Origin: an uncultured Candidatus Saccharibacteria bacterium
Lineage (GTDB): Bacteria; Patescibacteriota; Saccharimonadia; CAILAD01; CAZGYV01
Assembly: GCA_964530725.1 (NCBI GenBank)
Contig: CAZGYV010000001.1
Span: 15,829-79,828 of the forward strand
Direction: 5' to 3'
Length of the DNA stretch: 64,000 nt
Shown here: positions 4,072-30,504 of the stretch, piece after piece
How positions within the stretch are numbered: position 1 is the first letter of the stretch
How the letters are laid out: every line of letters begins with the position of its first letter
Translations under genes and position numbers: made by a program
The notes under the pieces: model-generated
Seen by the model: the letters and a program-made list of their open reading frames with translations, nothing else
Told to the model about the DNA's origin: nothing
Database searches by the model: none

Positions 4072-4081
4072 ACAGTGTAAT

Positions 4082-7000
4082 ATGTCTACATTACATAAAA
4101 GAGTATGGGGTAAAATCAAAAGCTACTTTGTAAGGGATGAAGCCGAGAAGCAAACACACCCCCTAAAGTCTCTCAGGCCAGCAAAGAATATTGATGGTCA
4201 CTCCGCTTATGTTGACGACATCGCTGAAGCGGTTGCAAATGATGACATTCTGAATATAGCCCTTACTGGCAGCTACGGTTCTGGTAAAAGTAGTATCCTC
4301 AGAGTCTTCAAGGATTCAACAAAGAAGAATAAAGTAGTCCAAATATCGTTCTCAAGCCTAGGGGCGAATATACAGGGTTATATCAATAAGTCTGAAGATG
4401 ATGAACACGAGAAGCTAAACAATCTCACAAACCTAATCCAAAAAGAGATAGTCAAACAGATACTCTTCAAGGAAAAGTACAAGAATATACCGTATTCAAA
4501 GTACAAGAGAGTCTCCAGCCCACGCTTGCCCCTAGTTTTTCTTAACGCATCATTAATATCTATAGTTCTGTTGGCCGTATCATTCGCAAACGGGTGGCTG
4601 GCTCAATTGTTTAAAGTTGCAGCCATTTCGGATTTCTGGTGGCAGGTAGCACTCTGTGCAGACCTATTCATTATCAGTACCTCGCTTATTGCTATCTTCG
4701 TGCTTACGCTATCTGGCAAAATACGGATAGATAAAATTGGTGCATCTTCAATATCATTATCACTCTCGGGAAGTGCAAGTTATTTTGACGAATACTTAGA
4801 TGAGATTATCTACTTCTTTGAAGCTGGACGATACAACGTGGTTATCTTTGAAGATATTGATAGGTTTGAGAGCCTTTATATTTTCGAGACCCTTCGACAG
4901 CTCAACACCATTCTGAATAACTCAGAGCAGATAAAACAACCCGTGACTTTCATCTACGCAATTAAAGACAGTATTTTCGCCAAAGAAGTTGTTGATGCTA
5001 AGAACGACCACAAAGAGCGAAGTGCAAACAGAACCAAGTTCTTTGACCTCATCATTCCTGTAGTTCCTTTCATTACTAATGTGAACTCACAAGACCACAT
5101 ACTTCAGGTTTTTGATAGCGAGTACCGAGACATCATCAGAGAGCCAGCCTCAGTAGTGGCAAAGCATATTACTGATATGCGTCTTGTGGTTAACATCTAT
5201 AACGAGTTTCTAATATTCAAGGATAAAGTTGTACTCCCCGACTCAGGCTTATCTCTGGATAAGTTATTTGCAGTTGTTGCTTACAAAAACTGGAATCTGG
5301 ATGAGTTTGAAAAAGTTAAAGATGGTGATAGTTCAATCGATAAGGTTATTGCTGCACACAGCAAATATGTTGACGATAGAATACGTACCATTAACTCTGA
5401 GATACGAAGCAAAGAAAGTGCCCTAAAGACTATCAATGCCATTGCTGAACGGTCACAGAGCTTAGGTAAGGTTCTTACCGACTATATAGCCGATGTATTG
5501 CGACAGGTGCAAGGTTCTGCTCAGTCCTATAGCCTTAACAGCACTTCTTATGACTTAGAAGATTTCACAACCGAAGATTTTTGGAGCGATATCATCAAAG
5601 GGGGTGAGACCAGTACTCTTATTGTCACCTATCGAGCATCAACTGGCTACACACAAAACCTTACACTGACGGCAGCCGACATCAGTAGTATTTGTAGCGA
5701 CAGCCTTGATAAAACCCAGTGGGATACAAAAGCAGCAGAAGCTATTGAAGACGAAATAGGAGTACTACGAGCCGAAGCTAATAAACTCCCATACCAAAGT
5801 ATCAAGGAACTCATTCAGGAATCACCAGAGTTTCTCGCTAAATTAAAGGAGCTCGATGGCGGTAAGGTTGTTGCTGACGAGGTAGGATGGCAACTCATTA
5901 AGGCTGGCTATATCGATACCGAATTCGTACACTACACCTCGCTATACTACAGCACCAGCATGAGCCTCAAAGCTCGTAGCTTCTTGCTAAATAATGTCCG
6001 ACTGAACAAACAGTCTTTGCATCACAAGTTTGAAAACGATGATGACATACAAGCACTTCTAGAAAAAATGGGCAGTACCTATCTTAATGATAAGAGCATG
6101 TACAACATCTCAATAGTTGATTACTTGCTCAGGAAGGATGACTCAAGAGTAGATAAGATAATAGCTAACTTGGCAGGCGGTGACGCTGACGACCTTCAAT
6201 TTATCAATGCATATGTGAAGGAGGGTTCTGAAGTAACCAAGTTTATCCAACAGCTTGCTGCACGATGGGATGGAATCTTTACGTATATTACAGGTGATAA
6301 CGAAATGGATGATAAAAAGAAGGGTCGTTTCATTAGCCTTGCATTAACTGCTGGTTCTGAGAGTATCAAGTATAAAACCAATCCATCCGTTAAAGGTTTT
6401 ATTGAGGCCAATAAAACAAACGTCCAGATACTTACAAACGATAACCAAGATAGCTCAGCCGTTGATGATGCTTGCCGATTGCTCATGCAGTTTGGAATTG
6501 AATTCGATACTCTTGATAATCTGAACGAGCAAGCAAAGGAAGCCGTAAAAGATTATGGTCTCTATACGGTCAATGAGCAGAACATGACATCTATCCTTGG
6601 AAGTCCAAGAGTGCCTTTGGATACAATCAAACGCACAAATGAATATGTCTACTCTCACTTGCTAGGGCATCTTGGTGAGTACGCAGACCTATTCCAGAAT
6701 CGAGCAGGCTCAGAATATGCACTTGCAGGCGAAGACGGATTTGAAGCAGTAATTGATGAGGTGTCAAAGATTTCGATGGATGACTTAGGATTAATTCTGG
6801 CTAATGCTGACCTGTCGAACTGTATCGTTCAAGATATTAATAAACTTGGTTCAGACACATGGCCTCTACTGGTTGAGAATGTCATTCTGTCCAACACTCT
6901 AAGTAACGTTCTGACATACTTTGAGCTGTCACATGCCGATGACAAGACAGTAATCAATGACCTGCTGGCTACATACCTTACTGAGGCTGAAACGGTTGTA

Positions 7001-7753
7001 CTTGATAAAGACTTTGCGGAGTATACTGCAGAAAATGTAAAGACCTTTGTTTTGGCCGTAGTAAATAGTTCAAAAATCGATGTGGAGACCACGGTTAATA
7101 TTGTCCATGATTGCTACACCGAAGACTACATTGACATATCAGATATTAAACCCCAAAACGGTAGCCTCTACGGTGCGTTGCTATCAAAGGACTGCATCGA
7201 AGATACGCAGGCGAACTTCGAGGCAATTAGAAACCTTTCTTGGGAAACGAAAAGCTCATACATAGCAAACTCCAAGAAGTTCTTAGAGTACATTGCAGCC
7301 CTCGCTCTCACTACGGACGAGCTAAACTCTATTGCTGAAGACGGCTCAATTCCTGATGCCGTTAACGAGTATATAGTCGATAACATCGTTGCTTATTCTG
7401 CTGAGTTATCTATCATGTCAGCTGCACACTTTGCCGAGTTTGCATTACGTAAGTCGAAGGTACTCAGTGCTGATTCACTTAAGGTTATTCTTGACGGAGC
7501 GGATAAGGAAACTAGCATTAAGCTCATAGGTCTAGCTTTAAATAATCTCGACTTTTCAAATATGCTCACACTCATGCCAGTTGTTGGTGGAGAGTATAAG
7601 AAGCTATCCGAGAAAAACAAACGACCATTATTTGAGAATACCGACTACAACTTAAACCTCATTGCCCGACTTAAAGAACTGGGCTTGGTGAGTAGTTATG
7701 AATTAAAAGATAATGAAACAAAAATAAAAGTAGTTATGAAGTCACGATGGTAG
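4082..7753 (+). CDS. KAP-family / YobI-like P-loop NTPase with transmembrane helices inserted in the NTPase domain (1223 aa)
   Basis: Walker A LTGSYGSGKSSIL at residues ~60-72. Two to four hydrophobic helices (LVFLNASLISIVLLAVSF..., LCADLFIISTSLIAIFVLTL) lie between Walker A and Walker B (VVIFEDIDRF). This matches the KAP NTPase architecture. The long C-terminal alpha-rich region and overall size are similar to B. subtilis YobI (~1200 aa). Confidence 0.65.
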   Translation: MSTLHKRVWGKIKSYFVRDEAEKQTHPLKSLRPAKNIDGHSAYVDDIAEAVANDDILNIALTGSYGSGKSSILRVFKDSTKKNKVVQISFSSLGANIQGYINKSEDDEHEKLNNLTNLIQKEIVKQILFKEKYKNIPYSKYKRVSSPRLPLVFLNASLISIVLLAVSFANGWLAQLFKVAAISDFWWQVALCADLFIISTSLIAIFVLTLSGKIRIDKIGASSISLSLSGSASYFDEYLDEIIYFFEAGRYNVVIFEDIDRFESLYIFETLRQLNTILNNSEQIKQPVTFIYAIKDSIFAKEVVDAKNDHKERSANRTKFFDLIIPVVPFITNVNSQDHILQVFDSEYRDIIREPASVVAKHITDMRLVVNIYNEFLIFKDKVVLPDSGLSLDKLFAVVAYKNWNLDEFEKVKDGDSSIDKVIAAHSKYVDDRIRTINSEIRSKESALKTINAIAERSQSLGKVLTDYIADVLRQVQGSAQSYSLNSTSYDLEDFTTEDFWSDIIKGGETSTLIVTYRASTGYTQNLTLTAADISSICSDSLDKTQWDTKAAEAIEDEIGVLRAEANKLPYQSIKELIQESPEFLAKLKELDGGKVVADEVGWQLIKAGYIDTEFVHYTSLYYSTSMSLKARSFLLNNVRLNKQSLHHKFENDDDIQALLEKMGSTYLNDKSMYNISIVDYLLRKDDSRVDKIIANLAGGDADDLQFINAYVKEGSEVTKFIQQLAARWDGIFTYITGDNEMDDKKKGRFISLALTAGSESIKYKTNPSVKGFIEANKTNVQILTNDNQDSSAVDDACRLLMQFGIEFDTLDNLNEQAKEAVKDYGLYTVNEQNMTSILGSPRVPLDTIKRTNEYVYSHLLGHLGEYADLFQNRAGSEYALAGEDGFEAVIDEVSKISMDDLGLILANADLSNCIVQDINKLGSDTWPLLVENVILSNTLSNVLTYFELSHADDKTVINDLLATYLTEAETVVLDKDFAEYTAENVKTFVLAVVNSSKIDVETTVNIVHDCYTEDYIDISDIKPQNGSLYGALLSKDCIEDTQANFEAIRNLSWETKSSYIANSKKFLEYIAALALTTDELNSIAEDGSIPDAVNEYIVDNIVAYSAELSIMSAAHFAEFALRKSKVLSADSLKVILDGADKETSIKLIGLALNNLDFSNMLTLMPVVGGEYKKLSEKNKRPLFENTDYNLNLIARLKELGLVSSYELKDNETKIKVVMKSRW

Positions 7754-7919
7754 ACGTGGGGTGCGGTAGGGCTCGCCAAGCGTAGCGGCACAAGTCCTGT
7801 TTAGCGGGATACTACTTTATAGCATAAGCATGCCATAAGCAAAAAACGAAAACTCCATACCTCTGCATCTGTAAATTGGCGGATTTCTAGTAGTTTTTGG
7901 CTATGACTAACTATACGTA

Positions 7920-8414
7920 TTAGTAGCTTTTAGGAATAGCCTTACAAACTTCATCAAGAAGCTCATCAGGACTCATGTTGAGGTTTTGGTTTAAGTCTTT
8001 AAACTCCATAGTTATCATCACATAGACCATAGTCTGGAAGTTATTTGGGTGTTCTAGCTTCTCTGCAACTTGGGTTGTATATGCAGTTAGTCGTAATAGT
8101 TCGTCTGGCTTTTTGAATCCAGTTCTTGCAGAGACTGTCATAAGTCGCAACTCTTCCTTACTGGCATTAGGATTCTGGCGTTTATGCATGTCATACATCT
8201 TCTTTTGCGTCTTGGCTATTGAAACAGGACTACCTGCTTTTTTGAATAGTCCACCAATCCACTTGAAGATAGCAACAACCCAAAAGAACAGACCAAACCA
8301 TACAAGGATACCCGCAAACATTGAGGGTAGTAAATGGAATATACTAGGCAGCATTAAAGCTAACCCGATAAGGAACAGTTGATAAGGCTTAATACTTTTT
8401 CTTTGCTTCGACAT
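7920..8414 (-). CDS. Small 2-TM membrane protein with cytoplasmic C-terminal domain (164 aa from Met at 8414)
   Basis: AAGGAG 6 nt upstream of ATG 8414 (MSKQRK...); track start at 8510 lacks RBS. Convergent with KAP NTPase gene. Confidence 0.45.
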   Translation of the reverse strand: MSKQRKSIKPYQLFLIGLALMLPSIFHLLPSMFAGILVWFGLFFWVVAIFKWIGGLFKKAGSPVSIAKTQKKMYDMHKRQNPNASKEELRLMTVSARTGFKKPDELLRLTAYTTQVAEKLEHPNNFQTMVYVMITMEFKDLNQNLNMSPDELLDEVCKAIPKSY

Positions 8415-8455
8415 GTTTTTCTCCTTAAAAATAAAAACGACACCACGCTTGGTGT

Positions 8456-8558
8456 CTAAACCAGTAACAGAGTTTTTAAGCCCGATTACTTCGCATGGTG
8501 CCGTTTTCAAGGCTTAAAACCACGCAAAATTACTTGCGGTACTCTATAACTGGTTTAG
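8456..8558. ncRNA. Structured intergenic element: nested inverted repeats (outer 17-bp IR 8456-8472/8542-8558, 15/17 match; inner perfect 9-bp IR 8474-8482/8511-8519)
   Basis: CTAAACCAGTAACAGAG ... CTCTATAACTGGTTTAG and TTTTAAGCC...GGCTTAAAA read directly from sequence; lies between membrane-protein gene and recombinase promoter. Confidence 0.35.
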
Positions 8559-8856
8559 ACTATTTCATTATATAACAAAAACACCCCCATGTTGCTCAAA
8601 TCACCCCTGAGCCCAAACGATATTTTGCGTTTAAAATCAAAAGTTGATGTTATGCCCATCTCGTAGATAAAAGTGCGTGTTTTGACGGTTTATTTACAGT
8701 ATGTTGGTCGATTATTTTGCTTCCAAAATTAAAAGATGAGCATAAGTCCACCTCACAAATATGAGCGAAAAAAATGAAGCAAGTTCAGCGGTATTTCCGA
8801 CCACTATGGAGTTTTTGGTTATCCACAGACACTTGTCAAAATAAACATAAAAGGTA

Positions 8857-8885
8857 TTGACTTTTTGGGCAAAGTTTGATATAAT
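8857..8885 (+). promoter_or_regulatory. Consensus sigma70-type promoter TTGACT-17 nt-TATAAT directed toward small ORF and serine recombinase
   Basis: TTGACT 8857-8862, 17-nt spacer, TATAAT 8880-8885; ~270 nt upstream of ORF 9155. Confidence 0.5.
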
Positions 8886-9154
8886 ACCAACAGTTAATGA
8901 CGTGGTACACATGTTAAATCTCTTAGCTAAATCATACACAGAACCGACACGGCGTGGTGTTTAGCTAGTTATTTGATAGTCCTATAGTCACTACTCTTGT
9001 TGGAAGCAATAAAGAGAGAGCATCAGAGTTTCGCCTTCGTGAAAATATGCCCATTCTCCTACGTTGTCCTACTAAATAATTAGTAAGATAACAGGCTGAT
9101 TTAGTACGCCCTCGGACGGGTGTTTTTTATATCTGCCAAAGAATAAGGGTTAAC

Positions 9155-9376
9155 ATGCCACGACAAAGAACATGGAGCGGTCAGATGCTCACAATATCAG
9201 ATAAACCTATCATTACCACAGGAGAAGCTCGCAAGATACTAGGCAAGGGTTACGAAGAGCTTTCAGATGAACACCTAATGGGAGTAATTGTTTCACTTTC
9301 TAAGATAGCAGACTATTTCCTGACTAGGATTAGTGTTCCAGAAAACTATAAGGTATGTGGTAAAATGGGGATATGA
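9155..9376 (+). CDS. Small hypothetical protein (73 aa) immediately upstream of, and overlapping, the recombinase (possible accessory/directionality factor - speculative)
   Basis: ATGA overlap with recombinase start (9373-9376); no recognisable motif. Confidence 0.35.
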   Translation: MPRQRTWSGQMLTISDKPIITTGEARKILGKGYEELSDEHLMGVIVSLSKIADYFLTRISVPENYKVCGKMGI

Positions 9377-10971
9377 ATACGATGGATAAAAAAGAGCCAA
9401 TCAAAGTTTATGGTTATAAGCGTGTGTCTACTGAGGAGCAAGTTGATGGGATGTCTTTACATACTCAAGAGCTTGCAATTCAAGCCTACGCAGAGCAGCA
9501 CAATCTTGAGGTGGTGCATATCTTTCATGACGATGGAATATCCGCCAAAACAGCCAAGCGCCCGCAACTTCAAGAGATGCTCGCAAAACTCACAGCCAAA
9601 GATAACGAGGTGCGTGGTGTAGTTGTTTACAATCTCAGTCGTATCTCTCGTGATTTAGAGTCATACAGTCGTGATATAGGCTATCATCTTTCGGCAAAAG
9701 GCGTTCGTCTGTACTCTACAGTTGAAAACATTGACGATACACCAGAGGGTCGTTTGATGCGTAATATTGCACTCTCTATCCACCAGTACGATAACGATAC
9801 AAAAAGTCGAACAGTTAAAGACAATATGAAACAAGTTGCTCTTGAGGGTTGGTGGCAAGGCAATATCCCCTACGGATATAGCCGTGTTAAAGTACCGATT
9901 GGCATTAAGGACAAAGACGGTAAAACTAAGGAGCGTCTCACTCTCGAACCTGATAGCAATAACGACTTGAGCGACAAGATGCGTATGATGCTAGAGCGGT
10001 TCAGTGAGGGTGATTTGAAACAGTCCGAGCTTACTGATTATGCTGAGAGTATCGGCCTATACAGCCCAAAGGGTGAACGTTTTGCACCTCAGTCAATGAA
10101 TAACATTCTAAGAAATATTACCTATGCGGGCTTTGTGTGTAATAAGATGACAGACTTTGAACCTGTAAAGGCTAAACACGTAGGTCTTATCTCGCTTGAG
10201 ACATATTTACGTAATCAGGCTGTTCTTGATGGTCGTAAGCCTGATGAGGCGATGCCTCGCTTTACTGCTAGCTACCCTCTCAAGCACTCTCTGTTATGTA
10301 TTAACTGTCATAAACCCTTAACAGGTAGTGCACCTACTGGAGGTTCTGGTAAGAGCTCACCTCGCTATCACTGCACAAGATGTACGGGTACTGGCTCAAA
10401 AGGTCTTGATAGAACGAATGAGCTATTTGAAGCATTCTTAAACGATGTTACGCCTACAGATAAGATGATTAAGCTCTTTGATGTGATTGTACGCCGTATC
10501 GCCAAAGACAAGCTCTCAAACGTGAATAAGGCTATCAGCGATGTTAGAGACGATATGACCAAGATAGACACTGATATGCAGAAAGCACTTCAGTCTATGC
10601 TCGATGGCGATATCAGTAAGCAAGAGAAAGAAGACTACCAGTCGTCATTACGTATTAAGCGACTCAACCTAGAGGACGAACTTAATAAGCTACGAGACAT
10701 ACAGAGCCTCAATGAGTCTACTATTACCTATGTTTGTAACTTTATGGACGCTCCTGCTCGTATGTGGCAAGATGCAGACGCAGAGACAAAAGTCATCTTC
10801 CAACAGATGGTTACAGAGAACGGTATTGTATTCGACCTCAAGAACGAAAAGTTTGGAACGGACGGTTTGAGTATGTTTTACAGATTGAAAGACAACAAAA
10901 AAGACCCATCAAAGGCTGATGAGTCCCTTATGGTGATCCCACGGGGAATCGAACCCCGGTTACCAGGATGA
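9373..10971 (+). CDS. Large serine recombinase (resolvase/invertase catalytic domain + recombinase domain + zinc ribbon + coiled coil)
   Basis: N-terminal YGYKRVSTEEQ (catalytic Ser), VVVYNLSRISRD, C-terminal Cys cluster CINCH...HCTRCTG, 532 aa. Last ~13 codons are antisense to tRNA-Glu 3' end. Confidence 0.85.
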   Translation: MNTMDKKEPIKVYGYKRVSTEEQVDGMSLHTQELAIQAYAEQHNLEVVHIFHDDGISAKTAKRPQLQEMLAKLTAKDNEVRGVVVYNLSRISRDLESYSRDIGYHLSAKGVRLYSTVENIDDTPEGRLMRNIALSIHQYDNDTKSRTVKDNMKQVALEGWWQGNIPYGYSRVKVPIGIKDKDGKTKERLTLEPDSNNDLSDKMRMMLERFSEGDLKQSELTDYAESIGLYSPKGERFAPQSMNNILRNITYAGFVCNKMTDFEPVKAKHVGLISLETYLRNQAVLDGRKPDEAMPRFTASYPLKHSLLCINCHKPLTGSAPTGGSGKSSPRYHCTRCTGTGSKGLDRTNELFEAFLNDVTPTDKMIKLFDVIVRRIAKDKLSNVNKAISDVRDDMTKIDTDMQKALQSMLDGDISKQEKEDYQSSLRIKRLNLEDELNKLRDIQSLNESTITYVCNFMDAPARMWQDADAETKVIFQQMVTENGIVFDLKNEKFGTDGLSMFYRLKDNKKDPSKADESLMVIPRGIEPRLPG

Positions 10972-11005
10972 GAACCTGGCGTCCTAACCGCTAGACGATG
11001 GGACC
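10931..11005 (-). tRNA. tRNA-Glu (anticodon CUC)
   Basis: GGTCCCATCGTCTAGCGGTTAGGACGCCAGGTTCTCATCCTGGTAACCGGGGTTCGATTCCCCGTGGGATCACCA: 7-bp acceptor, anticodon loop TTCTCAT, T-loop TTCGATT, encoded CCA. Confidence 0.85.
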
Positions 11006-12358: not shown

Positions 12359-12787
12359 TTAATTACTGATATTGACAGTCGTGGTAGTGGAGTTGGTCAC
12401 AGCAGCGTTACCACCATTGCCTGATTGAGCTGACTGACTGGAATTATTGCTGACTGAGACATTGGTCGAGCCGTCTTCGTGCTGAACAGTCGAGCTGTGC
12501 GTCGAGGAGACGGCACCCTCACCTGTTTCGCTCTGCTCACTTTTTTGCTCGATAGTGACTACCGGGTCTTGGCTTGGTTGCTCCATTTGCGGGTTCTCCT
12601 TTGTATCCGGTAGTTTAACGGCGGGCTTGATGGTGGTCTGTGTCGCAACTAGGCTCTGCGTGGCGGCCAGACTCACTCCGCCAAGAATGGCGAGTACAAA
12701 AAATACAGCGCCAATCTTGGTCCATAGTTGATAGGTTGGATTAGAGTGAATCACTATCGAACTCCTCCCCTGAATAATATTGTACAC
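12359..12787 (-). CDS. Small membrane-anchored Ser/Thr/Asn-rich secreted protein; paralogous to C-terminal extension of SipW
   Basis: TM helix GAVFFVLAILGGVSLAA then low-complexity ending ...TNSTTTTVNISN; 3' ~30 nt share ~75% identity with 3' end of ORF 12821..13744 (TTGACAGTCGT core). Confidence 0.45.
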   Translation of the reverse strand: MYNIIQGRSSIVIHSNPTYQLWTKIGAVFFVLAILGGVSLAATQSLVATQTTIKPAVKLPDTKENPQMEQPSQDPVVTIEQKSEQSETGEGAVSSTHSSTVQHEDGSTNVSVSNNSSQSAQSGNGGNAAVTNSTTTTVNISN

Positions 12788-12820
12788 GATAAAAATTGTC
12801 TGTAAGAAATCTTGGATTGT

Positions 12821-13744
12821 TTACGGCTGAATGTTGACAGTCGTATTGGTGTTGTTCGAATTTGTCGCCTCTCCGCCGCTGCTGGTTTGCTGATTATTGT
12901 TGATAATATTGATATTATTGGTGTTTTCCTCATAAATCGAGCAGTTGTCATTAAATGTAATTTCATTAATCGAGCCCGGGCCGGTATTAGTGATTGTGGC
13001 GCTATTTTCTCCTTGCCCGCAAGGATTGTTACCGCCCTGCGAGTTGACTGATATCGTGTTGCCAATCAGGCTAGCCTGCGAAAAAAGAGCTGCCCAGCCT
13101 ACGCCGCTAGCGGCTATAAAGATGAAAAACACAAAGACGGCGCGTTTTATCAGCCCATCTATACTGGAAGGATGCTTCCTGGGGCTTGCTTGGTCGGACG
13201 GGTGGTTCTGCGGAGGTTTATTGTCGTGATCGTTTTTTTGATTTTTCGGCTCAACCTCGGGGTGCTGAAGTGATCGCCGCAGCAGCCTAATTTCATCAAA
13301 AATTATAAACGCGGCCGGTATAAAGACAAAAATGATTAGTAGCGGCCAACCTCGGGCATAGCTGAACGCTTGGCCGATTTTTGGATAATGCCAAATTACT
13401 TTACCGACAACATTGCCGCCCATGATCTCTTGATCGGCTACTTGATTTGCGTCACCCTTGGTGATGAGAGTTGGCAAGCCATTGCTTTTTATTTCGACGA
13501 CGCGGTGAGTAATGGTTTGTTTCGGATTATTGGGGTTGATATAGGTAACGACATCACCGGATTTTAGTTGCCTAATCGGCTCGCGCTTGATGACTATCAG
13601 CGAGCCTTGCGGGATGGCGGGGTCCATACTGCCGGTTAGTACCGACATGGCTTTGAGGCCGGTTACAGGCAACAGAAAGACCGCGAGTATGGCCCCGCTG
13701 ACAACACAGATCGCAGCGGCTATAATTTTGATAGCTTTGATCAT
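12821..13744 (-). CDS. sipW: Signal peptidase I, archaeal/ER type (SipW-like), with C-terminal TM + Asn/Thr-rich extension
   Basis: SVLTGSMDPAIPQGSLIVI (SGSMEP-type Ser box) and ITHRVVEI His box, N-terminal TM; 307 aa vs ~190 for SipW, extra ~120 aa contain second TM and NxT-rich tail ending TTVNIQP. Confidence 0.7.
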   Translation of the reverse strand: MIKAIKIIAAAICVVSGAILAVFLLPVTGLKAMSVLTGSMDPAIPQGSLIVIKREPIRQLKSGDVVTYINPNNPKQTITHRVVEIKSNGLPTLITKGDANQVADQEIMGGNVVGKVIWHYPKIGQAFSYARGWPLLIIFVFIPAAFIIFDEIRLLRRSLQHPEVEPKNQKNDHDNKPPQNHPSDQASPRKHPSSIDGLIKRAVFVFFIFIAASGVGWAALFSQASLIGNTISVNSQGGNNPCGQGENSATITNTGPGSINEITFNDNCSIYEENTNNINIINNNQQTSSGGEATNSNNTNTTVNIQP

Positions 13745-13796
13745 GGTTTAAATTCCGCTCATACTTTATAAATTTATTATTAAGGTTTTATTTTAT

Positions 13797-14333
13797 TTAA
13801 GGTTGTGTGCCGGTAAACACGACATCAAAATTGTCAATGGTCGCCTGCGTGCCAGTAACAGCATCAGTGTCCACCTTGATTACGAGCTTGTAATTACTTG
13901 TCACACCAGCGTTGATCGTTTCTACTGCCACATTGCTGTTAATTAGATTGGCTAGTGTTGTGGTAACGACATTGCTGTCGTCTAGCCGGTTGATTTTAAC
14001 GTGAACTTTAGCAAAGTCAGTGAAGTTCGAGTAAGTTGGCACTACTGGTACATGAGCGGTTACGCCAAGATTGACGCCGCCGTTGTTTTTGAGGTCAAAC
14101 AGGAATGGCAGAGTATCATTTCCAGGTACAACATTGGTCCAGCTATTACCTTGGGCAGTCGAACCAAAAGTGCCAGTTGTATTGATCTGCAAGTCGGCCG
14201 AAGCGGTCGACAGCGTGTTGCTCGTCAAAGTAGCAGTTGAGCCTAGGTTCGCGAAGGTCACGCCTACTACCAGCGCCATAGTAGCACCAATAGAAACGAT
14301 TGCTCGCGAGATAGCCGCGCGCTTAGTCACCAT
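13797..14333 (-). CDS. TasA/camelysin-like secreted protein with SipW-cognate-type signal peptide
   Basis: MVTKRAAISRAIVSIGATMALVVGVTFANLGSTATL... resembles TasA-family N-terminus (basic n-region, h-region, A-F-N), directly upstream of sipW. GGGGG RBS 8 nt before ATG 14333. Confidence 0.55.
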   Translation of the reverse strand: MVTKRAAISRAIVSIGATMALVVGVTFANLGSTATLTSNTLSTASADLQINTTGTFGSTAQGNSWTNVVPGNDTLPFLFDLKNNGGVNLGVTAHVPVVPTYSNFTDFAKVHVKINRLDDSNVVTTTLANLINSNVAVETINAGVTSNYKLVIKVDTDAVTGTQATIDNFDVVFTGTQP

Positions 14334-14506
14334 ACATATCACCCCCTTCCTATATAGATTAGCCTCACAAAAGCTTAAGCTTTATTATACACCTTTCACA
14401 ATAATTACAATGAATTTTTGTACAGACTTATATAAATGCTAAAAAACATACTTTGCGCTATAATTGTAGTTAGAATGATTGTTATGCTATCTCAAGGATC
14501 ACTCCC

Positions 14507-15862
14507 ATTAAAAAGCCAGCACAAACCGGCTCCACTTTAGTCGAAATTGTTATTAGTTTGAGCATCGTGTCGGTGGTTATTTTGGCTGTCTTGTCGGTGA
14601 TGGTGTTTAATATGCAGATCATATCAAGCGGCAAATCAAGAGCTCTGGCGATGGCTTTGGCAAACGAAAAATTGGAAAATCTGCGCAATATGCCCTATGA
14701 CAGCTTGGCTACAGTGCATGGTCCGATCTATCCAGGAGGCTCTATCGTTGACGACGAGGATGTGACTGTTGGCGGTATCGCCATGGTTGTGCACACCGAT
14801 ATAAGTTATAACGACGATCCATTTGATGGCAATTTTGCCGGTACTATCGCCGGTAAGCCGCAGGATTTTTATCCCTATGACTACAAGAAAGTTACCATCA
14901 CGATCTACCTGAAGTCAGGCAATCGCAAACTGGCCAATATTAGTACCGACGTGGCCGGCAAAGTAGCCGAGACAGCCACGAACACCGGCATCATCTTGAT
15001 TAAAGTAATAGACGCCAATGGCAATCCGGTCGATGGCGCTTCCGTTCACCTAACAAACCCTACTCCAAGTCCGGCAGTTAATATCACGACCACGACCGAT
15101 AATCAGGGCCAGGTATTGATTCCCAAGATGCCACCGGACAGTGGCAACGGCTATCATCTGACAGCGACGAAAGCGGGCTTTTCGACTGATCAGACCTATC
15201 CCGTTTCCGTTCAAACACCCTCTCCGACTCAGCCCGATTTTAGTGTTCAGGCTCAACAGGTCGTAACCCAGACGTTGGCTATTGATCAGCTGGCTAATAC
15301 TCTAACAGTTAAAGCTATTGATATCAGTGGTAATCCAATTAGCGGGGCTGCTGTTAATATCCATGGTCAAAAAACTATTAATTCTAGCCCGATAGTCTAT
15401 AAGTATAGTTCGGTGCAGACGACAAATGGCAGCGGCGAGATCAGCCTGACAGCTTTGGAGTGGGATTCTTATGACTTGAGTGTTAGTGGGCACAGTATTC
15501 TCGCCTCCTCCCCTTACAAGCCCTTCGCTCTCAATCCTAGCGCTAGTCTGACTGTTACATTGACACTGGACACCCCGTCGACAAGCCGACCAATTATCGA
15601 AGCGGTCACGCCGAGTAGCGCGGTCTCCGGCAGCCCTAATGTCCAAATTGATATCACCGGACAGAACTTAAATGGTGCAACCTTTTTACTGCGCAAATCG
15701 GGTAGCGCTGATATTGTAGCGGGCAACCTGTCTTCACCCGATTCCAGTACGCTTTCTGGCACTCTTGATCTATCCGGCGCGGCAGTTGGCAACTGGGACA
15801 TTGTGGTGACAAAAAGTGGCCAATCAACCACTCAGTCAGGAGGATTTAATGTCGCTAACTAA
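14507..15862 (+). CDS. Type IV prepilin-like (minor pilin/pseudopilin) protein with C-terminal Ig/carboxypeptidase-regulatory-like repeats; apparent ATT initiation codon
   Basis: In-frame upstream of the track TTG start is (ATT)KKPAQTG|STLVEIVISLSIVSVVILAV = classic short basic prepilin leader + G|xTLxE; AAGGAT 8 nt before ATT; no ATG/GTG/TTG in frame. Repeats GNPVDGASVHL / GNPISGAAVNI. Confidence 0.55.
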   Translation: MKKPAQTGSTLVEIVISLSIVSVVILAVLSVMVFNMQIISSGKSRALAMALANEKLENLRNMPYDSLATVHGPIYPGGSIVDDEDVTVGGIAMVVHTDISYNDDPFDGNFAGTIAGKPQDFYPYDYKKVTITIYLKSGNRKLANISTDVAGKVAETATNTGIILIKVIDANGNPVDGASVHLTNPTPSPAVNITTTTDNQGQVLIPKMPPDSGNGYHLTATKAGFSTDQTYPVSVQTPSPTQPDFSVQAQQVVTQTLAIDQLANTLTVKAIDISGNPISGAAVNIHGQKTINSSPIVYKYSSVQTTNGSGEISLTALEWDSYDLSVSGHSILASSPYKPFALNPSASLTVTLTLDTPSTSRPIIEAVTPSSAVSGSPNVQIDITGQNLNGATFLLRKSGSADIVAGNLSSPDSSTLSGTLDLSGAAVGNWDIVVTKSGQSTTQSGGFNVAN

Positions 15863-16454
15863 ATCGATCAACCCTTCCGCCCCGCGCGGATTGTCGCTGA
15901 TTGAGCTACTTATCGCAATGTCGATGGGGTTAGTTATCGGCATCGTGTTGACAAGCTTAATCGTTAATACCAGTCGCTCATATCGGTTCGCGCAGCTGCA
16001 ATCACAAACGGCCACCCAGATATCCACCTACTTGGAGCGCATGAGCCGGGTTTTACGCGGCTCGACTGATGTAGTTAGTGCCAGCTCGACAAGCCTAACT
16101 GTCTACGCATATTTTTCGCCGCGTGATAATGTGCCCGACAAGGTGCGTTATTTCGTGGACACCGATAATGCGCTTAAGGTGGGTGTCATCAAGGCGACGG
16201 GCAGTGCCCCCAACTACACCTATAACAGCTCCGATGAGACCGTGCAAACATTACTTTCTGACCTAAGACACGGCTCAACGCCGGTTTTTACCTACTATGA
16301 TGACAATAATAACCAGCTAACCGGCACCATTACGCCTGCTACAGTTAAGGAGATCGGCATTCGCCTGGAGCTCAACCCTGATCAGAGCATTTTAAAACAG
16401 AATGTAACGGGACAGACTAGGATAAATTTGCGCAATAGAAAGACTAACTTATGA
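15849..16454 (+). CDS. Type IV prepilin-like protein (minor pilin)
   Basis: AGGAGG 5 nt upstream of ATG 15849; MSLTKSINPSAPRG|LSLIELLIAMSMGLVIGIV prepilin cleavage/methylation motif. Track start 15816 is GTG without RBS. Confidence 0.65.
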   Translation: MSLTKSINPSAPRGLSLIELLIAMSMGLVIGIVLTSLIVNTSRSYRFAQLQSQTATQISTYLERMSRVLRGSTDVVSASSTSLTVYAYFSPRDNVPDKVRYFVDTDNALKVGVIKATGSAPNYTYNSSDETVQTLLSDLRHGSTPVFTYYDDNNNQLTGTITPATVKEIGIRLELNPDQSILKQNVTGQTRINLRNRKTNL

Positions 16455-17866
16455 AGTATCAATTAGGTCGTCTAAAAAATAACCGCCGTGGCTTCTCGAT
16501 GGTGCAAGTCATTATCACATCGGTATTCTTGATGAGTATCGCGCTTATTATGGCAACTTCAGCGGTGGTGAATTTAAAATATACCAGCTACGTAGAAAAA
16601 TCTTATGATGCCAACTCGGTTGCTGAGGCCGGTATAAATTATTATCTATGGCATTTGGCACACAACATCAGCGATTACTGTGACGGTCAGGCTTGTGGCA
16701 CGCAAGGGCCTGACGGCTACGGGCCGTTCACACATCAATACAAAGACAGTAGCGGTAAAGTAGTTGGTACTTACGAGCTATATATCAAGCCGCCGCCGGC
16801 CTATTCGAGCATGACGACAGTCAAGTCAATCGGTCGGATCAATGGCTTAAACAAATCCCGCGTCTTGCAGGCGCAGCTGGCTGTCCCATCGTTCGCGCAG
16901 TATGCTTTGCTGACCGGTACGGAGATTTGGATTGGCCCAAGCGAGCGAGTTAATGGCCCGCTGCACTCCAATGTCGGCGTCCACTTTGACGGTATCGCCG
17001 ATGGTCCGGTAACGGCTGCTAACGCGACTTACCGGCCAACTGCTCAGTTTGGCGGTGACGGGCAGATGCATAATGGTGTTTGGGGTAATGGCGGACCTCA
17101 GTCATATTGGAGCTTTCCGGTGCCGCCAGTTGACTTTAACGCTGTCACGGCGGACTTGCAAAAAATCAAAACCGACGCCCAGAGCAATGGCGTCTACCTG
17201 CCACCGACCAATCCCGGCAATCCCAGCTCAAAGCTAGGCTATTACCTAGAATTAAAATCAAACAAGTCAATTGATGTTTATCGTGTCACCCAAGAACGTT
17301 GCACTAGCCTATCGAGAACCTTCGTTGCCAACTACGCCAAGCCGGCCAATGGCTTGCTCTACGTTGAGGATAATGTCTGGGTGCAGTCTAAGTCTGGTGA
17401 TAGGTACAACGACCGCCTGACGATTGCGGCTGCCTACCTGCCCAGTAGCGCCGCGCGTGATAAATCGATTACTATCACCGGCGATATTTTATACAGTGCT
17501 AAAGACGGCACGGCCGCAATTGGCTTAATTGCTCAGAAAGACGTCAAGGTGAATAATGTAGCGCCATATAATCTAGAAATCGACGCTGCCCTGCTCGCTC
17601 AAAAAGGCCATACATTTTTTGAAAGCAGCACCCTTTCGGCCAATTGTAGCAATCAAGTCAAGGGTACGATAACTGTGCACGGCGCGATCAGCAGCTATCT
17701 ATTTTGGACCTGGACTTATGTTACGGGTGGCAACAATGTGATCGATGGCTACGCCACGACTCTCTCGACCTATGATAGTTATTTGAAGTTTAACCCGCCG
17801 CCGAGCTTTCCGACCACCGGCACTTTTTCGGTATTAAACTTTAGAGAATTACTAGAAAATCCTTGA
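16451..17866 (+). CDS. Large pseudopilin-like protein (PilX/minor pilin-like, lacks Glu5)
   Basis: MKYQLGRLKNNRRG|FSMVQVIITSVFLMSIALIMA leader + hydrophobic segment; ATGA overlap with upstream pilin. Confidence 0.55.
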   Translation: MKYQLGRLKNNRRGFSMVQVIITSVFLMSIALIMATSAVVNLKYTSYVEKSYDANSVAEAGINYYLWHLAHNISDYCDGQACGTQGPDGYGPFTHQYKDSSGKVVGTYELYIKPPPAYSSMTTVKSIGRINGLNKSRVLQAQLAVPSFAQYALLTGTEIWIGPSERVNGPLHSNVGVHFDGIADGPVTAANATYRPTAQFGGDGQMHNGVWGNGGPQSYWSFPVPPVDFNAVTADLQKIKTDAQSNGVYLPPTNPGNPSSKLGYYLELKSNKSIDVYRVTQERCTSLSRTFVANYAKPANGLLYVEDNVWVQSKSGDRYNDRLTIAAAYLPSSAARDKSITITGDILYSAKDGTAAIGLIAQKDVKVNNVAPYNLEIDAALLAQKGHTFFESSTLSANCSNQVKGTITVHGAISSYLFWTWTYVTGGNNVIDGYATTLSTYDSYLKFNPPPSFPTTGTFSVLNFRELLENP

Positions 17867-19355: not shown

Positions 19356-19685
19356 TTACAGAATGCCAGTTGGCTCTATTTCCAGCCAAGTGCCGCCTTC
19401 TTTGCGAAAAAGCAGCACCTTACTGGTCGTCTCAGTTGGGTCGTAAATATTTTCAATTCGCTGGGCGCCGCCACTGCGATGGTAATGGGTTTTTTTGTCG
19501 GCAACCCGTGGCCTAGTAACGCGTTCAAACTTATATTCCGTGCCGCTGCGCTCAAAAACTACGCAAGTCACGGTCTCTTCTAGTTCGTGAGCGTCAGACA
19601 AGGCGTGTTTATCAACTTTGTGTGATAGAATACCGTATTTTTGATCAATGACGTCAAGCAGCTCTTCCCAGGCGCGGTCGCTCAT
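19356..19685 (-). CDS. Hypothetical protein (109 aa), start overlaps stop of upstream gene (ATGA)
   Basis: Coupled to 19682..22225; no recognisable motif. Confidence 0.45.
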   Translation of the reverse strand: MSDRAWEELLDVIDQKYGILSHKVDKHALSDAHELEETVTCVVFERSGTEYKFERVTRPRVADKKTHYHRSGGAQRIENIYDPTETTSKVLLFRKEGGTWLEIEPTGIL

Positions 19686-22216
19686 AAGCTCGTGGCGATC
19701 TTGATTATTTGGTCTTGAGTTAGGCCGTGCTGATTGCCCTCTAAGCGGTACCAGTTGCCATTATTAATCCAGCTAGCTTGATTGTTGCCATACATGTAAA
19801 TTGTAAGCCCTTGGGCCTGCAGAGCTAAATACTTACTGGATTTTGGCGTAACGTAGTTTTCGGCCAGAGCTTGGGAGTCCCAGTCTGTCTTGGTGGTTAC
19901 GACGTCAATTTTACGCTTGTTGTTGTCGCCTTTAAGGCTGTAGCTAACGAGCCCAGGCGAGGTTTTGATATTGCTACCTAGCTGCCAGCCGCTTGGAATA
20001 TAGCCTGGCATACTGGCATTGATACCTGCTTTGCCGGCTGCCACTTTAAACGCCAGATTAGGGTAATTTACTTGCCAGACATAGACGCCGACCAAAACTA
20101 GCCCGACGACGCTGAGCAACGCGCTGCTGGCTGTAAAGCTGTGGCCGATTTTAGCTGGCGACGTTTTGGATTTTTCGGCCGCGCGCTCATGCACTAGCTT
20201 GAGGGCTTCTTCTTCGGTCAGCGGCTTATTTTCGAAATCAACTTCTTCTTTGGGTGGCTCGACTACCGGGTAGTTAATTTGATGGCTTGGCTTGTAGGCC
20301 GCGCCAGGAGTAATGCCATCGGGTGAAGTTGGCAGTACGAATGGTGTTGAAGCCTTGGGCGCGTTGCTTGCCTGGTTCGCCGGAGCTGGTTGTTCGACAG
20401 GCTTAGCTGGAATAATGTCTAGTGATCGCAAACCGCCCGATGGACCTGATACAGGCATTGGCTGTGGACTTGGCTTTGGCTGGGCGGGCTTGAGCGCAAT
20501 TGATTCTTGAGGCTTGCCTGGCTCTGCTTGCGATTGAGGTTTTTGGTTGATAGTGTCAACCGAGCCTGTGCCAGGCTTACTGACTACCTTAGTGGATTCA
20601 AGCTGTTTAAACTCTTCGTCGCTAAATACTGGCTCATCGTCAACATCAAGCGATGCTATTTCACTGCCAATATTCTCATGTGATTCCTTGGCTTGGGTAT
20701 CAGCTGCTGTCGGACTGGGTGCGGTAGCAGCATCGAGCGCGTTGATCTTTGCTGGCTCTAATTCTTTGGTATCCTTAACGCTAGCTTGACTCGGCGAAAC
20801 ATTTTGCGCGCCCGTGATATCGGACTTGGGTTGTACTTGGGATCCAGATTGTGTTGGCGTAGTTTGCTTTGAGCTTACCGGCTTGGCCGTGCTAGTTTCG
20901 ATTATTTTCGCTAAGTCATCAAGAGCTTCCTTGGCACTTTGGGCTGCAGGCAAGCTAACTGGTTTAGTGGTGGCTACAGGCGAAGAAGCTGCAGGCATTG
21001 GCATTGGGTTGTCCGTAGGTTTAGGTGCTGTTTGTGGTCGCGAATCAATCTTAATCGGCTCGGCGGACTGAATGGGGGTGGAGCTAGCTAAGTCACTAAA
21101 GGTAGTCGACGCCGGGCCATTGTTTTTAGTTGGTACTGTTTTTGTTGCCGGGCTAGCTAGTGGTGGCGAGGAGGTTACTTCGGTTTTTGGTGTGTCACTC
21201 GCTTTCGTTTCAATAGCTTGGGCTTGCGGAGCCGTGGTGCGAAATTTATTGACGAGCTCTGATTGAGGGACGGCGGCAGCTTTTTCTAGGCGCTGTTGGC
21301 GGGAGGGCACTGTAATTTGAAAATCTCGCCGCTCCAAATGTTTAGCTTGTTCTGGTGGCTGGCTAATGTTGACTGTGCCGCTGGCTACTGGTTTAGAGTT
21401 CGGTTCGATTGACTTTTTGCCACTGGCAACCTCTTCGACGACTCGTGAGATGCGCTCGCTCGGAATTGGCTTGACTGCTTCTATCACAGCACTTTCTATT
21501 AGAGCACGGTCATCAATGGTGTTAGGGGATTTTTTAGCCGGCTCTTTTGCCACACTTTCCTGGGTATCGCCGGAAACGTCACTTCGTCGCGTTTCAATAT
21601 CTCCTATTGGTGAATGCGGAATTATTGGCACCAAGGGCTTATTATCATCCGGCACTGGCAGGTTACTGGCTAGCTCTCGCGTAGTTTTCTGAGCTAGTTT
21701 CTCGGCGATTTCTTTGACTATGCGATCGTTTTTCTTGTGGCTGGCAATGACAGCTTGATCAATATTTTTAAACGTCTCAAGTTTATCATTGAGGTTGTCA
21801 ATTTTTTGCATGTTACTAGTTTGCGTGGCTTTAGCTGGAGTAGCTATGCCGGACTTTGGCTGGACAATAGGCTTACTTATCGGTGTGACGGGCTTAGGTG
21901 GAATCGGAGCGGCTTGATGATGGACGGGGTTAACCGGCGGCTTTACGGGCGGCGGAGGCGGCGGTACCGTGGCTTTTTGCGGCAACGGAATCTCTACTTT
22001 GGACGGATTGGGTTGAGTAACTAGAGGTATATTGTGTGTCGGCTGTTGCGGCACTTTTGCCACAGGTAAAACTGATGAGACCGGCTTAGCCTCTTCTTTG
22101 ACCTCTGGACTTGGTTTTATACCACCTGGCTGCCAGGGGGTGCCGCAATTAGCACAAAAAACCTTGCCAGCAATTACAATCCTATCTTTTTCTTCGCAGT
22201 CTGGACATTGAACCAT
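19682..22216 (-). CDS. Zinc-ribbon membrane protein with ~600-aa Pro/Thr/Ser-rich disordered region and C-terminal extracytoplasmic domain
   Basis: N-terminal CPDCEE...CANCG zinc ribbon, long PxP low-complexity, TM helix LLSVVGLVLVGVYVW near C-terminus followed by ~150-aa globular domain; first ATG at 22216 (track GTG at 22225). Confidence 0.55.
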   Translation of the reverse strand: MVQCPDCEEKDRIVIAGKVFCANCGTPWQPGGIKPSPEVKEEAKPVSSVLPVAKVPQQPTHNIPLVTQPNPSKVEIPLPQKATVPPPPPPVKPPVNPVHHQAAPIPPKPVTPISKPIVQPKSGIATPAKATQTSNMQKIDNLNDKLETFKNIDQAVIASHKKNDRIVKEIAEKLAQKTTRELASNLPVPDDNKPLVPIIPHSPIGDIETRRSDVSGDTQESVAKEPAKKSPNTIDDRALIESAVIEAVKPIPSERISRVVEEVASGKKSIEPNSKPVASGTVNISQPPEQAKHLERRDFQITVPSRQQRLEKAAAVPQSELVNKFRTTAPQAQAIETKASDTPKTEVTSSPPLASPATKTVPTKNNGPASTTFSDLASSTPIQSAEPIKIDSRPQTAPKPTDNPMPMPAASSPVATTKPVSLPAAQSAKEALDDLAKIIETSTAKPVSSKQTTPTQSGSQVQPKSDITGAQNVSPSQASVKDTKELEPAKINALDAATAPSPTAADTQAKESHENIGSEIASLDVDDEPVFSDEEFKQLESTKVVSKPGTGSVDTINQKPQSQAEPGKPQESIALKPAQPKPSPQPMPVSGPSGGLRSLDIIPAKPVEQPAPANQASNAPKASTPFVLPTSPDGITPGAAYKPSHQINYPVVEPPKEEVDFENKPLTEEEALKLVHERAAEKSKTSPAKIGHSFTASSALLSVVGLVLVGVYVWQVNYPNLAFKVAAGKAGINASMPGYIPSGWQLGSNIKTSPGLVSYSLKGDNNKRKIDVVTTKTDWDSQALAENYVTPKSSKYLALQAQGLTIYMYGNNQASWINNGNWYRLEGNQHGLTQDQIIKIATSL

Positions 22217-22274
22217 ATGAAACACGCTTATGTATGCACTTTTATTATAGAAGGAAAAGTTGTAAGCGTAAAGA

Positions 22275-23117
22275 TTATTTTTGCCGCTTGGCTGCTAAAT
22301 AAACCAGCCAAATAAATCGCGGTATAGCAAACATGCGAGTGATTCGTCTAGGCTGGATCATAAACCGCCATAGCCACTCCAATCCACTCCGGCGCATAAA
22401 AACCGGCGCTCTTTTGATACTACCGCCGAGTTGGTCATAATCAAAGCTGCCGCCCTCACCTATCATGATTCGAGCTAGTCCCGCGTCTTTGTGTTGGAAA
22501 ATAAATTTTTCTTGAATCGGGAAACCGCGAGCGACGAAGAGAATATCGAGTTTCGACTCAGCTACTTTCTTGATAATATTTTCTTCTTCGGCCTTATCGA
22601 AAAATCCTGGCCAGACATCAATTAAATTTAACCGCGGAAAAATTTGCCCTAAAGCTTGCGCAACAGCTGGCGTTCGCTCGGGTTTGCCAGTGATGATGCC
22701 AACGCGCCATTTTTTGTCGCTAGCCAGCGCGAGCAGCTTTTTTGTCACGTCCACACCCGCGCCGCGCTCAACGATAATTTGTTCGCGCCATTTTTTATTT
22801 TGTATGTCAATCAAAAGACTCTTAATTAAGCTAAAGATTGTTTTTTTCGTCTTCGGCGCACCATACAAAAAGCTAGCCGCCCACTGCAGTGAGACGCCAT
22901 CCGCTAGGCATAAATCAGCTTGATTGATGATATGCGCTAGGCCATGGTTGTCACTGGCAGCCGTCATGAATTCGACATAGGGCTTAATTACATAGATAGT
23001 TTTTTTATTATTAGACTGCAAGTGGTTTTCAAAATATTCAAAAGTATCGCGGACAGTCATCAGGTCGCACTCGATCCCTAAAATATTGACCTTGTCGTAT
23101 TTATTTTGCTTTGACAT
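22275..23117 (-). CDS. tagA: WecB/TagA/CpsF family glycosyltransferase (N-acetylmannosaminyltransferase-like)
   Basis: C-terminal RAPVFMRRSGLEWLWRFMIQPRR motif and overall ~280 aa size characteristic of the family. Confidence 0.7.
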   Translation of the reverse strand: MSKQNKYDKVNILGIECDLMTVRDTFEYFENHLQSNNKKTIYVIKPYVEFMTAASDNHGLAHIINQADLCLADGVSLQWAASFLYGAPKTKKTIFSLIKSLLIDIQNKKWREQIIVERGAGVDVTKKLLALASDKKWRVGIITGKPERTPAVAQALGQIFPRLNLIDVWPGFFDKAEEENIIKKVAESKLDILFVARGFPIQEKFIFQHKDAGLARIMIGEGGSFDYDQLGGSIKRAPVFMRRSGLEWLWRFMIQPRRITRMFAIPRFIWLVYLAAKRQK

Positions 23118-30441: not shown

Positions 30442-30504
30442 AATTATACTTTTACAACTCTGATATAATCTATTATAATACAGGAGTTTTGTTAGAACTT
30501 CCAA

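Follow-up and report, generated by a model that had tools for sequence, protein, structure and literature searches.

Why should a signal peptidase of the SipW type carry well over a hundred residues beyond the end of its catalytic unit, and what might those residues do? The question is raised by a 64,000-nt stretch of DNA (here called the window) from an uncultured Candidatus Saccharibacteria bacterium (GCA_964530725.1, contig CAZGYV010000001.1, positions 15,829-79,828 of the forward strand). An earlier annotation made from the letters alone (the sequence-only reading) had described an operon on the minus strand of this window, and its three co-directional open reading frames (ORFs) were all found as given: 14333 to 13797 (178 aa, gene 1), 13744 to 12821 (307 aa, gene 2) and 12787 to 12359 (142 aa, gene 3), with 52 nt between genes 1 and 2 and ~66 nt between genes 2 and 3. 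The gene 1 frame is open back to a GTG at 14342. Because its homologues start with MTTRR or MVTKR and the ATG at 14333 has a purine-rich ribosome-binding site in front of it, the earlier size of 178 aa for its product was retained. All close relatives of the operon proteins came from metagenome-assembled genomes of Saccharibacteria (TM7, class Saccharimonadia), and in a relative whose peptidase is 59% identical the three-gene order was kept along with a convergent DUF3048 gene alongside. We lean towards reading the locus as a three-gene secretion and assembly operon of the tapA-sipW-tasA kind, in which the peptidase would release a TapA-like fibre primer fused to it.

A signal peptidase with a pre-protein-like tail and a TasA-like neighbour

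The first 156 residues of the 307-aa protein (13277..13744, minus strand) form a SipW-like signal peptidase I of the endoplasmic reticulum (ER)/archaeal type, a relative of SEC11. TIGR02228, the model for this type, matched residues 9-153 with 88.7 bits against a cut-off of 51.85, and Pfam Peptidase_S26 matched the protein with 27.5 against 22.9. The nearest solved proteins by both sequence and fold were the human catalytic subunits SEC11A and SEC11C (sequence E 6e-7), and Ser39 (GSM; codon 13630-13628), His80 (THR; codon 13507-13505) and Asp98/Asp104 (KGDAN...D) lined up with the SEC11A/C motifs. In an alignment of 60 homologues Ser39, His80 and Asp104 were invariant (60/60) and Asp98 was kept in 58. 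The Ser/His dyad, whose absence the sequence-only reading had listed among the findings that would refute it, is thus intact, and the assignment held as a peptidase of the ER/archaeal type. The Bacillus SipW equivalog NF046067 gave 70.3 bits, below its cut-off of 190; judged from these models the peptidase appears to work like SipW and is no orthologue of Bacillus SipW by NF046067. Hydropathy and AlphaFold2 (AF2) helices placed a first transmembrane (TM) helix at about residues 4-28, the catalytic domain at 29-128 and a second TM helix at 129-156. The AF2 helices themselves covered residues 2-24 and 133-160, and the catalytic domain was modelled with a predicted local distance difference test score (pLDDT) of ~95. 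The SipW layout is complete by about residue 160 and everything beyond it is extra, confirming the claim of additional residues, which number ~147. The hydrophobic segments of the protein lie at residues 1-38, 129-156 and 193-223, so that what had been called the second TM helix, in the extra region, is the third hydrophobic segment.

The extra region has a recognisable order, all on the minus strand. It begins with a polar linker rich in Pro, Lys and His (residues 157-200, 13145..13276) that was modelled at low pLDDT with no secondary structure, varies in length among homologues, carries 8 K+R vs 6 D+E and ends ...IDGLIKR. This linker is predicted to be cytoplasmic and to act as the n-region of an internal signal peptide, whose h- and c-like regions would be residues 201-218 (AVFVFFIFIAASGVGWA, 13091..13144). 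A predicted signal-peptidase site, A218|A219 (G-W-A218|A219), falls between nt 13091 and 13090 and is followed by a donor-strand-like segment (residues 219-234, ALFSQASLIGNTISVN, 13043..13090) and then by an Asn/Thr/Ser-rich, beta-strand-rich module, named NTGPGS here after its motif, that runs to the end of the protein (residues 235-307 and the stop codon, 12821..13042). Across 60 fusions the junction had Ala at P-1 in 52 (Ser or Gly in 5 more) and T/A/V/G at P-3 in 57, with Gly or Pro frequent at P-5/P-4. The uncharged stretch before the site had a median length of 19 residues, vs 18 in TasA-like pre-proteins. Given this short stretch and the conserved -1/-3 residues, the segment has, by sequence, the geometry of a cleavable signal peptide and not that of a bilayer-spanning anchor. 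After the site the tails shared a strand pattern of L at P+2, S at P+4, A/V at P+6, L at P+8, N at P+11 and I/F/L at P+13, in the same register as the mature N-terminus of the TasA-like proteins.

The likeness to TasA-like proteins was also evident at the level of profiles. A hidden Markov model (HMM) built solely from the first 52 residues of TasA-like proteins matched the tail junction in 29 of the 60 fusions at E<0.01 (best 4e-9), came near in a single one of 320 background window segments (E 0.017) and gave no significant match to the peptidase's own N-terminal TM helix. A broader profile of the TasA-like family matched residues 200-236 of the 307-aa protein at E 2.7e-4. Over 13 genomes the tail strand was closer to the TasA-like strand of its own genome than to those of other genomes (mean BLOSUM62 36.2 vs 21.4; permutation P ~2e-5), with its own neighbour ranked first in 6 of the 13; by this comparison the two strands are coupled, whatever the cause. 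In one Saccharimonadia genome (locus L003, JGI Ga0376663_0000068, 4176-7805) a TasA-like gene paired with a gene for a fused peptidase occurs twice in a row, and each tail strand there matches its own upstream partner (TTTN.V...G in one pair and TASLTGNTF in the other), which reads as a clear example of pairwise strand specificity. Since the tail starts with a TasA-type signal peptide, site and strand and continues into a module that also occurs free-standing, it looks like a fused substrate or accessory pre-protein, a description that replaces the earlier one of a mere TM helix with a low-complexity segment.

The fusion is a recurrent architecture. A search of 5.8 billion proteins with the 307-aa protein returned 612 homologues; ~55 of the best 62 homologue clusters were 270-500 aa long and many covered >90% of the query. 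As dozens of assemblies made independently contain the same continuous ORF, comparison excludes an assembly artefact as far as it can, and the earlier claim of a real and unusual fusion was borne out by the architecture shared among these ~55 clusters. In a scan of one genome per species, with 11 closer sequences as query (80 loci kept, plus 5 loci fetched earlier), tail-bearing peptidases occurred solely in Saccharibacteria/Saccharimonadia loci. The module was present in 13 of 15 tail-bearing loci, and a TasA-like gene lay directly upstream on the same strand in 14 of the 15. Peptidases of Clostridia, Actinomycetota and other Patescibacteria in the same scan were mostly 160-250 aa and carried the module in no case. 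On these sequences the fused layout is conserved across Saccharimonadia and so far confined to Saccharibacteria. The literature searched held no description of a fused peptidase/accessory layout.

Other Saccharibacteria encode the parts separately. Loci L063 and L018 have a SipW of 172-185 aa followed by an adjacent or overlapping accessory gene, whose pre-protein has an n-region of ~40 residues, a hydrophobic stretch, a TasA-type site (T-L-A|Y-F-S-D in L063, T-F-A|A-W in L018) and a lamin-tail domain (LTD). The L063 accessory protein also has a PF12389-like N-terminus, and the LTD recurs in the tails of longer fused relatives. Because of these split arrangements, the fusion probably arose by joining of the adjacent accessory and sipW genes through loss of the intervening stop codon. 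Such a joining best explains the fused tail, and the lineage of the window would then have trimmed the accessory protein to strand and module. In two longer fused relatives (L004 5001-6311 and P0015) the NTGPGS module appears to sit between the first LTD strand (HLLINRVFIG) and the remainder of that domain (WIELHNP...); in such relatives the module may be an insertion into the LTD.

The protein encoded upstream (gene 1, 13797..14333, minus strand) consists of a signal peptide (residues 1-28, 14333-14250), an N-terminal strand (29-46, 14249-14196) and a beta-sandwich (47-178), with the cut predicted after T-F-A28 and the motif T-F-A|N-L-G-S-T-A-T-L-T-S-N-T-L at the mature N-terminus. It matched no model in Pfam (PF12389, camelysin/TasA, none at E<=0.1) or NCBIfam, its N-terminal 58 residues matched no NCBIfam model, TIGR04088 included, and neither phmmer with the 178-aa protein nor the family profile found anything relevant among Protein Data Bank (PDB) sequences. 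The link to TasA came through the family, which comprised 695 cluster representatives at E<=1e-3. PF12389 was matched by 7 of 81 sampled relatives (best E 2.1e-5) and was the commonest family among their matches; the L063 counterpart scored 22.8 bits on it against a cut-off of 22.5. Aligned by hhalign with B. subtilis TasA, whose mature sequence was verified against 8AUR, the family profile gave E 6.7e-5 and 64% probability, pairing GVTFA|NL with GGTWA|AF, TasA's experimentally known cleavage site, and also aligning the N-x-x-P-G ... F-x-x-x-N-x-G that follows. At the cleavage positions A-1 was present in 81/81 family members and T-3 in 77/81. The AF2 monomer had a confident beta-sandwich core and a disordered N-terminus of 43 residues, so that the first 15 residues of the mature protein are disordered, as a donor strand should be. 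The best fold matches included cannulae CanX, TasA, ABP, thread, Tafi and chaperone-usher pilins; they were moderate, and many non-fibre Ig-like domains scored similarly. Because of these moderate scores and comparable unrelated domains we label the protein TasA-superfamily-like and not a PF12389 member by model. The earlier TasA/camelysin-like call therefore stands as a remote one: a TasA-superfamily relative, by transitive homology, with a signal peptide that looks to be of the TasA/SipW type. An isopeptide lock like that of BsaA was considered for this family and rejected, as the family has no conserved Lys or Glu.

Release or retention of the tail

We propose that the gene 1 subunit has its SipW-type signal peptide cut after T-F-A28, which would leave a free N-terminal strand, and that it probably polymerises by donor-strand exchange. 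In the gene 2 product the chain would pass back into the cytoplasm after the second TM helix and re-enter the membrane through the signal-peptide-like segment, which would bring the T/A-x-A site (G-W-A218|A219) to the outer face beside the catalytic domain. There, between A218 and A219, the peptidase would cut off its extension, either in cis or in trans, and free an 89-residue protein, itself without Lys or Arg, whose new N-terminus would mimic the subunit donor strand and whose body would be a small surface module. By analogy with TapA, the freed strand would fill the groove of the first TasA-like subunit and so prime or cap the fibre. Being fused, peptidase and primer would be made in a 1:1 ratio, and the primer would stay where the subunits are processed. 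In B. subtilis the N-terminus of TapA is similar to the donor strand of TasA and acts as a nucleator of fibres (PMC9674648, PMC10151520), TapA is, like SipW, far less abundant than TasA (PMC10151520) and stands at ~1:100 to it in fibres (PMC4551309), and for AbpB a strand that fills the acceptor groove to start or cap a fibre has been proposed (PMC9245690). We call the tail TapA-like by function on this analogy, claiming no membership of the TapA family: the junction obeys the -1/-3 rule, the TasA-like N-terminal HMMs match it and the strands co-vary, and from these we infer the processing. The fuller proposal, that peptidase and substrate share one polypeptide and that at the surface of a TM7 epibiont the released primer starts a chaperone-free fibre of the TasA-like kind, is tentative, and we would sooner expect some part of it to fail than the whole to hold.

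Several observations weigh against release of a fibre primer. The window's own tail was only marginal with the TasA-like N-terminal HMM (E 0.007), AF2 confidence for the tail was low (pLDDT ~50-69), and the strand segments for the co-variation test were extracted by hand. The co-variation itself could have another cause, such as gene conversion or shared adaptation to the peptidase. The gene 3 protein and its orthologue in locus L001 also lack the strand motif in the residues that follow their signal.

The main rival is that the tail is never cut. The third hydrophobic segment would then be a permanent anchor by which the peptidase displays strand and module at the membrane surface, where it would hold the fibre at its base or have another function apart from catalysis. 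B. subtilis SipW was reportedly called bifunctional in the title of a 2012 paper by Terra et al., cited in PMC9674648. AF2 models a continuous helix over residues 197-220, a membrane-tethered donor-like strand could anchor a fibre at its assembly site, and for BsaA of C. perfringens a stage of membrane-anchored oligomers that precedes cleavage by SipW has been proposed (PMC11580942). A plain anchor, however, needs none of the features of a cleavable signal seen here, namely 17-21 uncharged residues, Gly/Pro near the end and small residues at -1/-3; in the split relatives the corresponding region belongs to an ordinary pre-protein; and a strand held at the membrane would lie beneath the cell wall. 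We regard retention as possible but doubtful.

A second alternative does away with the fibre, making the 178-aa protein a monomeric secreted beta-sandwich, the shared motif a matter of recognition by the peptidase and the tail a further cargo. The moderate fold matches shared with many non-fibre Ig-like domains, the want of a direct PF12389 match for the window protein and the missing Lys/Glu for an isopeptide lock would suit it. Signal peptidases read mainly positions -3 to +1, however, and conservation and co-variation here reach P+13-P+16. The disorder of the 15 mature N-terminal residues in the monomer model and the presence of solved donor-strand filament subunits among the best fold matches also argue for a fibre subunit, and we consider a non-fibre role unlikely.

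The sequence-only reading had seen the tail as a surface-exposed, N-glycosylated (N-x-T) appendage of the peptidase for host attachment. The tail is indeed 24% Asn and rich in Thr and Ser, its module also occurs in sortase-anchored surface proteins, and glycosyltransferases and a Wzy_C-family protein are encoded ~10 kb away. Its N-x-S/T sites, however, are not enriched (3 observed vs 4.7 +/- 1.7 expected from composition), the extended bacterial site D/E-x-N-x-S/T is absent from the tail, and a check for N-glycosylation machinery found no STT3/PglB-type oligosaccharyltransferase among the 37 window ORFs scanned. What is conserved in the tail is the NTGPGSxN ... NxNxQ ... SG motif and not glycosylation sites. 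With fewer sites than composition predicts and no oligosaccharyltransferase in the ORFs scanned, glycosylation sites were rejected as the feature of the tail and the attachment appendage is very improbable. The last alternative is that an error of sequencing or assembly joined two genes through a frameshift or the loss of a stop codon. Split versions do exist in some other Saccharibacteria, but fused homologues at 30-94% identity were recovered from many assemblies independent of one another, and their junction residues are conserved; we give this alternative next to no credence.

Comparison with known systems

Among the closest known systems is the B. subtilis tapA-sipW-tasA operon, with which the locus shares a dedicated ER-type signal peptidase gene next to a gene for a TasA-like beta-sandwich subunit, a putative signal peptide that ends G-x-T-x-A with the predicted donor strand following directly and its cleavage site aligned in register with that of TasA, and an accessory N-terminus that would imitate the subunit donor strand, as described for TapA (PMC9674648, PMC10151520). 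The two differ in the accessory protein, here an in-frame extension of the peptidase that lies behind a signal peptide internal to the chain and has the NTGPGS module as its body (the LTD in relatives), whereas that of TapA is a V-set Ig domain. The gene order here is subunit, peptidase, accessory; the subunit has 150 mature residues vs 234 in TasA and lies below the Pfam threshold; and the peptidase, with 70 bits, stays far under the Bacillus SipW equivalog cut-off.

The sipW-bsaA-bsaB-bsaC operon of C. perfringens likewise combines a SipW gene with remote TasA homologues, which there polymerise by donor-strand exchange, and an accessory secreted protein. Its BsaA subunits are locked by an Asn-Glu-Lys isopeptide triad, in contrast to the family here with no conserved Lys or Glu, and its peptidase is unfused. 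The archaeal TasA-superfamily filaments compared were the AbpA/AbpB bundling pili of Pyrobaculum, Pyrodictium cannulae, Sulfolobus threads and haloarchaeal Tafi. They show no detectable sequence similarity to the proteins here, and Tafi is exported via the Tat pathway. The ABP operon has no dedicated peptidase nearby (PMC9245690). With SEC11 and archaeal signal peptidase I (MEROPS S26B; TIGR02228) the gene 2 product shares the catalytic domain, the Ser-His(-Asp) chemistry and membrane anchoring. It differs in its substrate-like C-terminal pre-protein, of which PDB, family and literature searches returned no example on any SEC11/signal peptidase I member.

Systems of the SipW/TasA/TapA kind are already known, and TasA homologues in Patescibacteria have been reported from Pfam counts (PMC9245690). 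The accessory pre-protein fused to the peptidase is what is new here. No relevant paper came up in full-text literature searches on SipW or TasA in Saccharibacteria or the candidate phyla radiation. To our knowledge, few bacterial enzymes are built with their own pre-protein substrate attached to them behind an internal signal peptide. As a natural 'Rosetta stone' the fusion would tie the accessory protein functionally to SipW, would support the idea derived from B. subtilis that primer and peptidase act together at low, matched abundance, and would offer a simple system for asking whether SipW-type cutting occurs in cis and whether the start of a fibre is coupled to it. Saccharibacteria are epibionts of other bacteria, and we know of no surface filaments studied in them other than type IV pili. 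A conserved operon for a TasA-like donor-strand fibre would give them a second candidate for an appendage that serves to attach the cell or to form a matrix and, if the proposal is true, a second class of surface filament, possibly exported with the aid of the pilus and possibly involved in host contact or aggregation. A link to epibiont-host attachment is speculation.

The module, the downstream gene and the neighbourhood

The NTGPGS module has the consensus I-T-N-T-G-P-G-S-x-N ... C ... N-x-T-x-V-x-V-x-N-x-N-x-Q ... S-G ... N-x-N-x-T ... V-x-I. Most relatives have a pair of Cys residues in it, and AF2 modelled it as beta-strands at low confidence. No Pfam or NCBIfam model matched the module or tail, and a literature search for the NTGPGS motif found nothing relevant. 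The mature-tail profile recovered ~200 short, free-standing secreted proteins with one or two module copies, some of which end in an LPxTG-type sorting signal. In the contexts of such proteins that were inspected (L086 and L087) there were no SipW or TasA genes nearby, and so the module alone is no marker of this system. Widespread in surface proteins of candidate-phyla-radiation bacteria and lacking a family model, the module deserves one.

Gene 3 (12359..12787, minus strand) encodes a small secreted or membrane protein. The ORF of 142 aa exists as described; its product is probably 131 aa, as an internal GTG at 12754 closely follows a GGAGGAG ribosome-binding site and corresponds to the position at which the 132-aa L001 orthologue starts. 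A 132-aa counterpart follows the peptidase gene in both L001 and L002. The protein begins with a signal or anchor whose last residues are S-L-A, continues with an acidic/polar linker and has a degenerate module at its C-terminus (~12532-12362). The sequence-only reading had given it the same organisation as the tail, and this held at the level of profiles: it was the sole other match to the module HMM in the window (E 1.2e-4) and aligned with the module profile by hhalign (85%, E 6e-6). It did not extend further, as BLASTP found no similarity between the 142-aa protein and the fusion and the strand motif is missing.

The two genes do end alike, TTVNIQP in the 307-aa protein and TTVNISN in the downstream one, as had been reported. 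At the DNA level the 11-mer core TTGACAGTCGT, which the minus strand translates as T-T-V-N, has exactly two occurrences in the 64-kb window, both at the 3' end of a gene and in the same frame, against 0.01 expected by chance. The two repeat copies span 12369..12394 and, at the 3' end of the peptidase-tail gene, 12831..12856 (plus-strand positions). The in-frame core of the ~30-nt repeat described earlier is thus real, and the repeat itself extends over 26 nt with an identity of 77%. Compared over their last 270 nt, the two genes were 54% identical, vs 51.5 +/- 1.4% in codon-shuffled controls, and because this is background level the recent duplication read from the repeat was rejected. The comparison points to an old paralogous module as the source of the shared ends, or at most to a very short conversion tract.

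A scan of the locus for consensus promoters and terminators gave counts not above shuffled controls, and nothing was concluded on transcription. Three genes divergent from the operon immediately adjoin it (14558-17866, plus strand) and encode proteins like type IV pilins or pseudopilins with prepilin-type N-termini, one of them with CarboxypepD_reg/Big_1 domains; in L001 the pilin-like genes lie ~4.5 kb further from the operon. Their position is notable because secretion of the SipW/TasA-like Bsa proteins of C. perfringens depends on type IV pilus components (PMC11580942).

On the other side of the operon a low-GC island (~0.40; 2500-11005) holds a gene for a YobI-like P-loop NTPase (4082-7753, plus strand) and one for a large serine recombinase (9373-10971, plus strand), whose 3' end overlaps a tRNA-Glu(ctc) (10931-11005, minus strand). 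As the cytidylate kinase gene lies directly beside the DUF3048 gene in L001, the island appears to be a mobile or defence element that integrated beside the operon.

Further features of note lie elsewhere in the window. A sortase gene and a gene for a DUF11 surface protein occupy 29317-30534 and 43400-44620 (both minus strand); the DUF11 protein has a TPTPTP linker and ends with IPQTG, a hydrophobic segment and KK, making it a likely sortase substrate by sequence. An 847-aa ORF (19682-22225, minus strand) with no Pfam match has an N-terminal CxxC...CxxC motif, a very long region rich in Pro, Ser, Thr, Lys and Ala, one TM segment and a C-terminal globular part, and accounts for the strong skew of GC and AT between 20 and 22 kb. 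It is followed at 22275-25523 (minus strand) by a cell-envelope glycan cluster encoding a WecG/TagA-family transferase, a GT4/GT1 glycosyltransferase and a Wzy_C-family protein, which adjoins mreB and murA-like genes. Among the members of the Wzy_C family are O-antigen ligases and protein O-oligosaccharyltransferases. Between 44000 and 50000 the GC content is 0.55-0.59, vs ~0.48 elsewhere, and this region, with several ORFs that match no Pfam family, overlapping ORFs on both strands and a 313-aa Pro/Gly/Ala-rich protein also free of Pfam matches (44866-45807), may be foreign or fast-evolving DNA.

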